From Patescibacteria group bacterium UBA2591 (GTDB taxonomy: Bacteria > Patescibacteriota > Patescibacteriia > UBA2591), in contig DDKT01000081.1 in the NCBI GenBank assembly GCA_002339755.1, forward strand, positions 1 to 33,444: a DNA stretch of 33,444 nt, in the 5' to 3' direction. A program made the position numbers and the translations under genes. How positions within the stretch are numbered: the stretch's first letter is position 1; every line of letters begins with the position of its first letter. Below, piece after piece: positions 7,316 to 10,338 of the stretch. The notes beneath the pieces are model-generated. The model was not told where the DNA came from. It was given only the letters and a program-made list of their open reading frames with translations, and made no database searches.

Positions 7316-8950
7316 ATGCTAATTTCCAAAAAAATGACTAAACAAGAAGCAAAGATAAGAATAGAAAAACTTAAAAAAGAAATCAATCACCATCGCTATC
7401 TTTATCATGTCTTAGATAAACAAGAAATTAGTGAAGAAGCTTTGGATTCTTTAAAGCACGAACTTTATCAATTAGAACAAAGATTTCCAGAATTCATCAC
7501 TTTAGACTCACCAACTCAAAGAATTGGAAGTAAGCCTTTAGATGAATTTAAAAAAGTCAAACATCAGGTTCTGCAATGGTCGTTTAATGACGCTTTTGAT
7601 CCAGAAGAAATGAAAGAATTTGACGAAAGAATAAAGAAACAGCTTGGTAAATTAGTAAATTTAAAATCAGTTGATTATGTATGTGAATTAAAAATTGATG
7701 GTTTGCATGTAGTTTTAACTTATAGAAAAGGAATTTTTGTTTTAGGCGCTACAAGAGGAGATGGGAAAATTGGAGAAGATGTCACTCAAAATCTTAAAAC
7801 TATTGAAAGTATTCCCTTAGGATTAGAAAAACCAGTTGATGTGATAGTAGAAGGAGAAGTTTGGATGGCTAAAAGGGTTTTTGAAGCCCTTAATAAAGAA
7901 AGAGAAAAAAGAGGAGAACCTCTTTTAGCCAATCCTCGAAACGCAGCTGCTGGAGCTATCAGGCAATTAGATTCTAAAATTACAGCTGAGAGAAAGCTTG
8001 ATTGTTTTATTTACGATTTGAGCAGTTCTTCTATCGGAATACCATCTACCCAAGAAAAAGAATTAGAAATTCTTAAATCCTTGGGTTTTAAAATTAATCA
8101 GCATTATCAATATTGTTCTAACATCGAAGAAGTAATCAAATTCTGGAAAAAATGGAAAAATAAAAAAGAAACCCAAGACTATTGGATTGATGGTATAGTA
8201 GTTAAAGTGAATAATCGCTATTTTCAAGAAAGCTTAGGTTATACAGGTAAAGCTCCTCGCTGGGCTATTGCTTTTAAATTTCCTGGAGAAGAAGCTGTTA
8301 CTATAGTAAGAGATATTCAAGTTCAGATTGGTCGGACTGGAGCTTTAACGCCTGTAGCCCATTTAAAACCAGTGAGAATAGCAGGAACAGTTATATCTCG
8401 AGCTACTCTTCATAACGAAGATGAAATAAAAAGGCTTGGTATTAGAATAGGCGATACGGTTATTGTTCAAAAAGCAGGGGATGTTATCCCTGATATTGTA
8501 AGGGTTTTGCCTAAATTAAGAACTGGCAAAGAAAAAAAGTTTTACATGCCTAACAAATGCCCTATTTGTAATACTAAAACAGAAAGAAAACCAGGGGAAG
8601 CAGCCACTTATTGTACAAATCTAAATTGCTTTGCCCAAGAAAGAGAAAAAATGACTCATTTTGTTTCTAAAAAAGCTTTTGATATTGAAGGAATGGGAGA
8701 GAAAATTGTTATCCAATTGATAAATGAAGGATTGATTTCAAGGCCAGTAGATATTTTTAATTTAAAACAGGGGGATCTAGAGCCCTTGGAACGCTTTGCT
8801 GAAAAATCAGCTAAAAATTTAATTGAAGCTATAGAAAAAAGTAAAAAAATCTCTTTAGCTAAATTTATCTTTGCCTTAGGCATAAGATATGTAGGAGAGG
8901 AAACAGCTCTACTTTTGGCAGATTTTGTCGCTTCAAGGATTCAAAAGTGA
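7316..8950 (+). CDS. ligA: NAD-dependent DNA ligase, N-terminal fragment (Ia, adenylation, OB, Zn-finger and most of HhH)
   Basis: Motifs seen: [10 protein letters not shown], the KxDG motif [10 protein letters not shown], the Zn finger CPICNT...YCTNLNC, and the Hh[13 protein letters not shown]. The frame ends at TGA 8948-8950 inside the HhH domain. An alternative start ATG at 7334 (MTKQEAK) is also possible. Confidence 0.9.
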
Positions 8951-9531
8951 AAACTAAAAAATTATTTATGGACATAATTCGAGAAGCAAAAAAATTCGCT
9001 TTAGAGGAAATAGAAAAATATGGATTTCCCGTAAAATCTTCATTTGAGATTTCTGAACTCAAAGCCTTGGAATTAGCTGAAAAATTGAATGCTAATAAAA
9101 TGATAATCTTAGTTGGGGTTTATCTAATGGATATAAAATTAGGAGAAGCTTGGAATGAAGGAAAGCCAGAAGAACATGTAGAAAAAGGAGTTATAATAAC
9201 TAAACAATTTTTAGTCAAATTCGATTTAGATGAAGAAACTAAAAATAAAATAATAAATTGCGTTGAAGCCCATCACGGCCAGAGACCATTTATTTGTAAA
9301 GAGGCTGAAATTTGTGCTAATGCAGACTGCTATAGATTTTTACACCCTCAAAGTTTTTTGAAAATCCTTATTGAGAGGGGGAAAAAGCAAAAATTTGAGG
9401 AGTTATTGAAATTCCTAGAACAAAAACTTGATGAAAAACATAAACTTTTGTCTTTAAATATTTGTAAGCAGGAGTTAGAAAATAATTATCATCTACTCAA
9501 GGAGCTTATAAAATCAGCAAGGGAATTATAG
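8947..9531 (+). CDS. HD-superfamily protein with a degenerate HD dyad, encoded inside the ligA interruption
   Basis: The GTG start overlaps the ligA-N stop (GTGA). [12 protein letters not shown] sits where the canonical LLHDIGK is expected (H replaced by M). VEAHHG and ANADCYRFL are the later HD-fold motifs. Length is 194 aa. Confidence 0.5.
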
Positions 9532-9688
9532 AATAAACAATGTTAAAAATTTAAGAAATTGAAATGAATAAACCAAACTTAAAAATTGTTTTGAAATGTT
9601 TTATTGCTACCGTTCTTTCTCCAATTAGCAACCCCTCTTTTTAGGTGCCAATATATGTCTTTTATAAAAGACAATATTTTGATAAAAT

Positions 9689-9717
9689 TTGACTTTTTTA
9701 GAAGACAAAAGTAAAGT
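9689..9717 (+). promoter_or_regulatory. Candidate promoter inside the ligA insertion
   Basis: TTGACT (9689-9694), 17-nt spacer, TAAAGT (9712-9717). It could drive the ATPase remnant and the ligA C-fragment. Confidence 0.35.
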
Positions 9718-9759
9718 GTAAATGCATAGAGAATCTTTCAAAAAAAAGAAAACTTTTAA

Positions 9760-9903
9760 TTTTTAATTAAAGAATTTCAGACCGAGAAACTTCTCTGGAC
9801 ACTTAAAAGAGGGCTAGAAATTCCTCTTTTCTTAAAGAAGGTGATTGCTGTTTATGGACAAAGAAGAAGTGGTAAAAGTTTTTATTCTTACACTTTAACT
9901 TAA
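9760..9903 (+). pseudogene. Truncated 5' fragment of a P-loop ATPase (AAA_14 / archaeal-ATPase-like GxRRxGKS Walker A)
   Basis: In-frame translation reads ...EKLLWTLKRGLEIPLFLKKVIAVYGQRRSGKSFYSYTLT followed by a stop. The Walker A context xxVIAVYGQRRSGKS is typical of that family's N-terminus. It has no start codon, and a stop follows 10 codons after the P-loop. Confidence 0.45.
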
Positions 9904-9909
9904 TAATAC

Positions 9910-10338
9910 ATGCCAACTATTGATCCTTCAAAAATAATCCAAATTCTACAAGATTTAACCCTTGAAGAGTTAAAAAAAACCAAAGGAATAGGAGAGAAAG
10001 TGGGGGAAAGCATCTACCAGTGGTTTCGCGACAAGAAGAATTTAAAGTTATTATACGATTTAGAAAAAGCAGGAATAAAGATAGAAATAGAAAAACCTAA
10101 AAGTCAAAAATTATTAAGTGGCAAAACTTTTGTCCTTACTGGAACCTTGGAATCTATGAGTAGGGAAGAAGCCAAGAAAAAAATTAGAGATTTAGGAGGT
10201 AATGTTTCTTCTTCGGTAAGTAAAAAAATAGATTTTGTAGTCCTTGGTAAAGACCCTGGTTCTAAATATGACAAAGCAAAAAAATTAGGAGTGAAAATAA
10301 TAAAAGAAGAAGAATTTCTGGAAATGCTAAAAGAATAA
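9910..10338 (+). CDS. ligA: NAD-dependent DNA ligase, C-terminal fragment (last HhH plus BRCT)
   Basis: LEELKKTKGIGEKVGESIYQWF is the terminal HhH. The BRCT domain is GKTFVLTGTLESMSREEAKKKIRDLGGNVSSSVSKKIDFVVLG. Its reading frame differs from that of the N-fragment. Confidence 0.85.
   Translation: MPTIDPSKIIQILQDLTLEELKKTKGIGEKVGESIYQWFRDKKNLKLLYDLEKAGIKIEIEKPKSQKLLSGKTFVLTGTLESMSREEAKKKIRDLGGNVSSSVSKKIDFVVLGKDPGSKYDKAKKLGVKIIKEEEFLEMLKE

Follow-up and report, generated by a model that had tools for sequence, protein, structure and literature searches.

Is an essential replication enzyme, the NAD-dependent DNA ligase LigA, made in two chains in some ultra-small bacteria? The question is raised by a contig of 33,444 nucleotides (nt) from the Patescibacteria group bacterium UBA2591 (GenBank assembly GCA_002339755.1, contig DDKT01000081.1, forward strand), here called the window at its full length, in which ligA is present as two open reading frames (ORFs), ligA-N and ligA-C. 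An earlier note, made from the letters of the window alone, had ascribed this split to an insertion of about 960 base pairs and had offered four explanations: a two-piece ligase, a BRCT-less ligase with a free HhH-BRCT module, removal of the interruption at the RNA level, or loss of function compensated elsewhere. Of the four, the two-piece ligase fits best. On balance we favour a LigA of two subunits from two adjacent genes, with both pieces expressed and both needed. Comparison with sister assemblies indicates that the split is fixed in the lineage and is older than the insert that the gap now holds.

Anatomy of the divided gene and position of the break

The elements of the divided gene are the following.

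7316–8950, + strand: ligA-N, 544 amino acids (aa), LigA model positions 2–524
8948–8950, + strand: TGA stop codon of ligA-N, the left gap junction
9910–10338, + strand: ligA-C, 142 aa, frame offset +2 relative to ligA-N, LigA model positions 529–664

Both ORFs were confirmed as first described, with one frame ending at the TGA and another opening at the ATG at 9910, and the gap between them is 959 nt long. In public gene calls ligA-N starts at ATG 7334 and has 538 aa. Pfam searches placed the Ia, adenylation, OB and Zn-finger domains and HhH motifs 1–3 in ligA-N (Nlig-Ia, E = 6e-6; DNA_ligase_aden, 4e-89; DNA_ligase_OB, 1.8e-34; DNA_ligase_ZBD, 8.9e-10). The KxDG lysine motif is present as ELKIDG and the Cys4 site as CPICN...YCTNLNC. 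The second piece, ligA-C, begins MPTIDPSK and carries ~52 aa of the HhH domain, with motif 4 and the remainder of the HHH_2 profile, followed by the BRCT domain. Four HhH motifs and the BRCT domain are all encoded, but the HhH domain is divided 3+1 between the two pieces.

The claim that no ligase residues were lost was borne out by two alignments. The NCBIfam LigA model PRK07956 (664 positions) is covered from 2 to 524 by ligA-N and from 529 to 664 by ligA-C, and against Escherichia coli LigA (2owo) ligA-N extends through residue 531 and ligA-C spans residues 535–669. The break takes the place of E. coli residues 532–534, between HhH motifs 3 and 4. Because the E. coli HhH domain comprises residues 433–586 and the BRCT domain residues 587–671 (PMC4797296), the break lies inside the HhH domain, as had been proposed; the Pfam HHH_2 profile is itself cut, with positions 1–21 in ligA-N and 26–63 in ligA-C.

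Scores of 695 bits against the LigA model and 183 bits against the LigB model were obtained for ligA-N; E. coli LigB has no BRCT domain. Judged by sequence, the locus is a LigA, and the sole defining feature that it lacks is the single chain: the polypeptide is interrupted by the stop codon, the gap and the new ATG, in the sister assemblies as in the window. NAD-dependent ligases share a highly conserved common domain pattern (PMC7470946). Canonical LigA (E. coli, 2owo; T. filiformis, 1dgs) has the same six modules in the same order as the window locus; it is the product of one gene, whereas the LigA of the window is encoded by two, broken inside the HhH domain.

The insertion site was located by comparison with P0243, the closest relative outside the lineage, which has an intact LigA of 711 aa with 76% identity to ligA-N and 66% identity to ligA-C. 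The linker DNA reads TTC CAA ATT CCA in P0243 and ATT CAA (AAG TGA – gap –) ATG CCA in the window. The final Lys codon and stop of ligA-N have no counterpart in the intact gene, and in the sister assembly L001 they read AAA TAA in place of AAG TGA. The Met start of ligA-C is one base away from the Ile codon of P0243, and the linker of the joined window pieces would be 28 aa long compared with 29 aa in P0243. The foreign DNA thus lies between the Gln codon and the Ile/Met-Pro pair. An alignment against intact ligA genes had been suggested as a check in the earlier note; it defined these boundaries against P0243, and a target-site duplication was not found.

An AlphaFold model of P0243, for which 30 intact relatives were used, places the break in an eight-residue coil (565–572) between two helices. 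This coil has the lowest local confidence (pLDDT 64, compared with 81 and 85 in the flanking blocks), and the stretch is the least conserved in an alignment of 30 intact LigA relatives. According to the model, the break falls in a poorly conserved surface loop between HhH3 and HhH4. The linker of P0243 (L096:1925–1970) contains a 21-nt tandem duplication (KFQIPDS-KFQIPN) exactly at this loop, which fits the loop being a hotspot of length change.

Sister assemblies, selection and the changing gap

Sister contigs were found by searching a metagenome protein collection with ligA-C and fetching the encoding contigs. Three sister assemblies were recovered, all from other sequencing runs.

L001 and L002: ligA-N 91% and ligA-C 92% identical to the window; gap 65 nt; HD-like gene absent
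L097: ligA-C 94% identical to the window; break at the same codon; gap 441 nt; HD-like gene absent

In L001 and L002 the gene order from mnmA to clpP is that of the window, and the break reads ...ASRVQK-TAA, then ATG-PIIGPSK. These assemblies bear directly on the notion of an assembly chimera behind the split or the insertion. The source contig is metagenome-derived and its gap is composite, as such an artefact might be. Yet at least three further sequencing runs, assembled independently, yielded the same break, two contigs are on record for the window's own proteins, base composition is even across the ligA region (G+C of the window, ~30%), and the right part of the gap is 91% identical to that of L097. 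A chimera is hardly credible. The reading of the TGA as a recoded Gly codon was rejected in turn: a sister has TAA at the same codon, and read-through would add only nine codons.

Because the sisters share the break with gaps of 65 or 441 nt and lack the HD-like gene, the split must predate the present insert; the attribution of the split to the ~960-base-pair insertion does not survive this comparison. By the same sequence evidence, the HD-like gene is a strain-specific passenger in a gap of strain-variable length.

Both ligase halves are under purifying selection. Ratios of nonsynonymous to synonymous substitution (dN/dS) were calculated by the Nei–Gojobori method between the window and L001, which differ by ~9% at the protein level. 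The ratio is 0.10 for ligA-N and 0.165 for the whole of ligA-C, the latter from only ~27 substitutions; within ligA-C it is 0.14 for the HhH4 part and 0.18 for the BRCT part. Flanking housekeeping genes gave 0.16 (thiI) and 0.29 (holB). Since the window and L001 are both already split, this selection acts on the split form. No extra stops or frameshifts are found in either half among four related assemblies, though the gap changes freely. The halves are accordingly intact ORFs with foreign DNA between them and unlike a decaying pseudogene, as the earlier note had it.

These figures also weigh on the proposal that ligA is a recent pseudogene, its ORFs merely young, and that another ligase of the genome, a host or a partner cell carries out ligation. 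Patescibacteria are thought to be host-dependent for many functions. A domain search found no second ligase within the 33-kb window, which says little about the rest of the genome, and L004, a member of a more distant split lineage, has a nonsense codon in ligA-N. Against this stand dN/dS values of 0.10 and 0.17 that are at or below the range of the flanking housekeeping genes, halves that have stayed free of lesions despite rapid change in the gap, and split forms that persist over far deeper divergence in other lineages. We regard a pseudogene as very improbable, and the compensated loss of function offered earlier is disfavoured with it.

The gap itself contains the following elements.

8968–9531, + strand: HD-like gene, intact, 187 aa, absent from the gaps of L001, L002 and L097
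9532–9664, + strand: non-coding DNA, 9596–9664 common to L097, no Rfam match
9665–9903, + strand: dead 5' fragment of an AAA_14/DUF4143 ATPase gene (~58 codons) with ~60 nt of its upstream region

The earlier note was right to recognize a truncated P-loop ATPase start. A 47-aa peptide from 9760–9900 was compared with 1.84 billion representative proteins and matched residues 12–57 of P0363 (65% identity, E = 3e-9), a protein of 431 aa with AAA_14 and DUF4143 domains. At the DNA level, window 9665–9897 shares 77% identity with L101/L128 across 235 nt (E = 4e-43), where the matching region is the start of the ATPase gene plus ~60 nt of upstream DNA. In the window the start codon has become ATA (9726–9728) and an extra A in an A-run at ~9740 shifts the frame. 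On this evidence the fragment is a gene remnant and not a functional member of the family, whose full length is ~430 aa. It ends in TAA TAA, 6 nt before the ligA-C start (TAA TAA TAC ATG), which agrees with the stop and nearby ATG reported previously. In L097, where the ATPase fragment is present and the HD-like gene absent, it is still an open 58-codon ORF with its TAA 6 nt before the ATG of ligA-C.

The homology to the ATPase runs through ...GKSFYFYTL, essentially to the start codon of ligA-C, and the 65-nt gap of L001 keeps TTC TAT TTT (FYF) at the corresponding place. Local alignment of the L001 gap with the window gap was not significant (11 of 300 shuffles reached the score), and it took the ATPase protein sequence to make a convincing case for positional homology beside the ATG. 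With this sequence, the right-hand end of the ATPase fragment is common to all three gap variants (65, 441 and 959 nt). Every sister gap retains remnants of the fragment, and the original split was therefore probably created by an insertion that ended in it.

The events may be pictured as follows. Foreign DNA whose end was formed by the first ~58 codons of the ATPase gene would have entered ligA in a recent ancestor, between the Gln codon and the Ile/Met-Pro pair. The inserted DNA would have supplied the Lys codon and stop on the left; the ATG on the right would have come with the insert or arisen from Ile by a one-base change. Later, the gap would have been altered by gene-sized insertions and deletions and by recombination, and in the simplest history that we infer the ancestral insert was shortened in L001 and L002 while its left side was altered in L097 and in the window.

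Several observations show the gap changing in this way. In L097, the gap matches window 9596–9909 at 91% identity over its final 311 nt and shows no relation to the window in the 130 nt that precede them. As 91% is about the third-codon-position identity of the flanking genes, the gap DNA shared with L097 looks neutral. Between L097 and L001, holB is 99.5% identical and the adjacent ligA-C only 94.9%, with gaps of 441 and 65 nt, which points to recombination with a breakpoint at the ligA gap or close to it.

The unrelated segment of L097 (L097:34–163, 130 nt) is richer in G+C (…GGGCGGCATAGTTCAC…GTGGCCGAGTGCCTAGG…) and stands in place of the HD-like gene of the window. By eye, one part of it looks like a tRNA D-arm; ARAGORN and Rfam gave no match. 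Elsewhere in these strains, between nifU (4263–4907 in the window) and mnmA (4888–5976), a Peptidase_S51 gene of 214 aa is present in L002 (L002:1217–1861) and lacking in the window. Between these strains, then, gene-sized differences are not peculiar to ligA.

The HD-like gene had been described as a 194-aa HD-superfamily gene starting from a GTG that overlaps the TGA. This GTG exists, but all eight aligned homologues begin with M-[DNKE]-I at the position of ATG 8968, which gives a protein of 187 aa. That an intact gene is present holds; its assignment to the HD superfamily is less secure. Matches to HD profiles are weak and below curated thresholds (HDIG, 1e-3; Cas3_HD, 7e-3), no Pfam family was assigned above threshold, and the HD dyad reads LMD in nine of nine aligned family members, in which an AHH motif and four Cys are also invariant. 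The family (~188 aa) has 502 homologues, and those with a named source come from Patescibacteria or DPANN archaea. On sequence grounds it is an uncharacterized small metalloprotein-like family of ultra-small bacteria and archaea. Its homologues elsewhere lie in gene neighbourhoods unrelated to ligA. Neither an HD-like gene nor ligA was found near any of 73 loci with related ATPase genes, so a common arrival of the HD-like gene and the ATPase fragment is unsupported. Near one HD-like homologue, a BcrAD/BadFG-type ATPase gene with intein and LAGLIDADG signatures was noted (L007:6605–8567).

A mobile element (insertion sequence, transposon or homing-endonuclease cassette) was considered and rejected. 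The gap contains no transposase or endonuclease ORF, no terminal inverted repeats and no target-site duplication, its repeats are only of chance size, and the HD-like homologues occur in unrelated contexts. A 10-nt direct repeat, TTTATGGACA (8965 and 9851), is at chance level for 1.2 kb of AT-rich DNA and lies off the junctions. RNA folding of 9532–9915 was uninformative (z = -2.3).

The genes around ligA are on the same strand, in the order rrf2, cysK-like, nifS, nifU, mnmA, thiI, ligA and holB; further along the window are rbfA, clpP, rny, ymdB, hup and the gene for a CCA-adding enzyme. Pfam searches at E ≤ 1e-5 matched neither of two long window ORFs, 24782–27202 (806 aa) and 269–1318 (349 aa).

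The same loop in other lineages

Splits at the same loop were found in four further sets of contigs.

L003 (group L003–L005): N piece 570 aa; gap 130 nt; C piece 141 aa; gatCA follows
L092–L094 (NCBI name Portnoybacteria): N piece 565 aa; gap 106 nt; C piece 147 aa
L098 and L099: N piece 552 aa; gap 56 nt; C piece 139 aa
L100: N piece 589 aa; gap 7 nt; C piece 141 aa

In these distant loci the break comes after the second helix of HhH3, and a Met restart follows a few residues before ...LS(I)E(D/E)L; the frame offset between the pieces differs from locus to locus. HhH4 is kept in every C piece that was verified by its context. A split-type Met start stands at the equivalent position in 34 of the 120 best matches to ligA-C, and the C protein of L092 is listed in 134 blocks of the metagenome collection. 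Among GTDB representative genomes, an intact in-frame ligA was present at 76 of 80 loci among the matches listed, a figure that is not a census. The long-read contigs L091 and L095, with ligA in four to five pieces, were dismissed as frameshift errors.

Neighbour-joining trees of LigA were calculated from 195 and from 77 sequences. All 25 bootstraps place the window and L001 with the intact P0243, and none of the 25 joins them to the other split lineages. Because the window lineage groups with an intact LigA and never with the other splits, the most economical reading is that this loop was split independently at least twice. Sequence motifs shared by eye between the L003 and L092 gaps suggest a single origin of the split for that group.

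Two features set members of the L003 group apart. In L004 a TAG (L004:5730–5735) occurs in ligA-N where the near-identical L003 has GAG (FA*KSA compared with FAEKSA), which leaves an N piece of 498 aa; either this is an error of sequencing, or an essential gene carries a true nonsense polymorphism. In L003 a hairpin with an 11-bp stem followed by TTTTG lies directly after the ligA-N stop (L003:5878–5902), and N and C may there be transcribed separately or attenuated. A different arrangement was seen in L086, a Sedimentisphaerales metagenome-assembled genome (JAFGBG010000238): its LigA is intact (716 aa, 1441–3591), and beyond the next two small ORFs lies a separate 121-aa ORF (L086:4474–4839) with the second helix of HhH4 and a LigA-type BRCT domain.

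The distant splits also bear on the idea that the halves are rejoined to a single-chain LigA, by a self-splicing intron, a split intein, a programmed frameshift or ribosomal bypass. In its favour are the clean interruption and the shared strand of the two halves. No RNA element fits: the whole window at the Rfam gathering threshold and 8700–10200 at E ≤ 10 gave only chance-level matches and no group I or II intron, and the gaps of 7–65 nt in relatives are too short for one. Frameshifting or bypass is opposed by stop codons on all N-to-C reading routes in L001. An intein is opposed by the lack of a Hint or intein Pfam match and by the lack of room for its halves, N and C accounting for every LigA residue. 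Across the distant lineages the gaps (7–130 nt) are of unrelated sequence and differ in frame offset, and every C piece opens with a conserved Met start. Rejoining in any form is highly improbable, and removal at the RNA level, one of the four explanations first offered, is rejected with it.

A proposed two-subunit ligase and its meaning

If LigA is assembled from two subunits, the N subunit would comprise domain Ia, the nucleotidyltransferase, OB and Zn-finger domains and HhH motifs 1–3, that is, all catalytic parts, and the C subunit would be a 142-aa protein of HhH motif 4 and BRCT. The two would reassemble non-covalently: HhH4 would pack on HhH3 and so make the four-motif DNA-binding domain whole again, and this docking would bring the BRCT domain with it. 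Such reassembly is favoured because ligA-N lacks HhH4 and because every verified split C piece keeps HhH4 under constraint.

The two genes are probably co-transcribed. The gap has no predicted terminator: a scan of the + strand from 8950 to 9910 found no terminator-like site, promoter and terminator scans being at chance level in this composition. The possible promoter TTGACT-N17-TAAAGT proposed earlier is present as a sequence (9689–9717), but matches of this kind are about as frequent as chance predicts for such AT-rich DNA, with 18 found compared with 13.0 ± 3.6 expected. Its TTGACT (9689–9694) lies in the upstream region of the ATPase fragment and is conserved upstream of the intact ATPase gene, and this captured region may add a promoter. 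The 58-codon leader of L097, ending 6 nt before the ATG, could give translational coupling. As L001 has neither feature, they would not be essential.

The rival that deserves most attention is that the N piece alone is the working replicative ligase and that C is an independent HhH-BRCT protein, forming no stable complex with N and serving perhaps in DNA-end or nick sensing or as a scaffold. The BRCT domain mainly adds DNA affinity, and it is dispensable for nick sealing, at reduced affinity, and for complementation in model LigAs (PMC10504179; PMC7470946). The 121-aa ORF beside the intact LigA of L086 indicates that such modules can exist separately, and the terminator-like hairpin of L003 lies between N and C. 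The studied BRCT-less chains (E. coli 1–586, PDB 4glx; D. radiodurans ΔBRCT) resemble ligA-N as catalytic chains without BRCT. They are engineered constructs, however, and ligA-N ends ~52 residues before the 1–586 constructs; it thus lacks one of the four HhH motifs as well, and that motif is kept in a selected neighbouring gene. The HhH domain provides essential DNA binding and helps clamp closure (PMC7470946), HhH4 is retained in all context-verified split C pieces and is constrained like BRCT (0.14 compared with 0.18), and all split lineages examined have N and C side by side on one strand. A self-sufficient N piece is on these grounds rather unlikely.

Some points weigh against a two-subunit LigA as favoured here. 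BRCT-less LigA ligates and complements in E. coli and D. radiodurans, as stated in PMC10504179 citing Wilkinson 2005, and the C piece therefore might not be needed for ligation itself. The physical association of N and C is inferred only. No Shine–Dalgarno sequence precedes ligA-C, as is the case for most genes of the window. The hairpin after ligA-N in L003 and the nonsense codon inside ligA-N of L004 indicate that regulation and integrity differ between lineages. The trees are distance-based and their sample is biased towards relatives of the window, the dN/dS of ligA-C comes from few substitutions, and the search for a second ligase covered the window.

Taking both sides together, we advance only tentatively the fuller proposal that this LigA is a true heterodimer, in which an HhH4-BRCT subunit completes the HhH domain, and that at least two independent fissions have struck the same loop in Patescibacteria; it may well hold. 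Gene fission in reduced genomes is known, for example from the split genes of Nanoarchaeum equitans, where likewise an essential multidomain enzyme in two ORFs is presumed to reassemble in an ultra-small host-dependent organism. The window differs in that its pieces are adjacent, the fission is probably traceable to the insertion of an ATPase fragment, the gap is strain-variable and the loop is recurrent. Cyanobacterial dnaE is a replication enzyme gene in two pieces joined through a split intein; the window locus has no intein sequence, and no covalent rejoining is expected. The BRCT ORF of L086 is, like ligA-C, a small LigA-type BRCT with part of HhH4, but it is an extra copy beside a complete LigA, whereas ligA-C is the only copy in the window.

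No report of a naturally split LigA was found by full-text searches of open-access papers, which is not proof that none exists. NAD-dependent ligases are antibacterial drug targets and are described as invariant single-chain enzymes; what appears new here is that an essential replication enzyme is split within its DNA-binding domain, recurrently and under selection. The record of the fission is unusually clear: a foreign gene fragment inserts, the gap changes fast and the halves are conserved. For annotation the locus is a caution, as the pieces are labelled 'partial' or 'BRCT domain-containing protein' and ligA may be mis-scored as missing or broken in small genomes. The split loop marks a permissive site in the enzyme, and the two pieces offer a natural system for the contribution of HhH4 and BRCT to nick binding in trans. 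If the ligase is a true heterodimer, its DNA-binding/BRCT module could be dosed, regulated or exchanged apart from the catalytic core.

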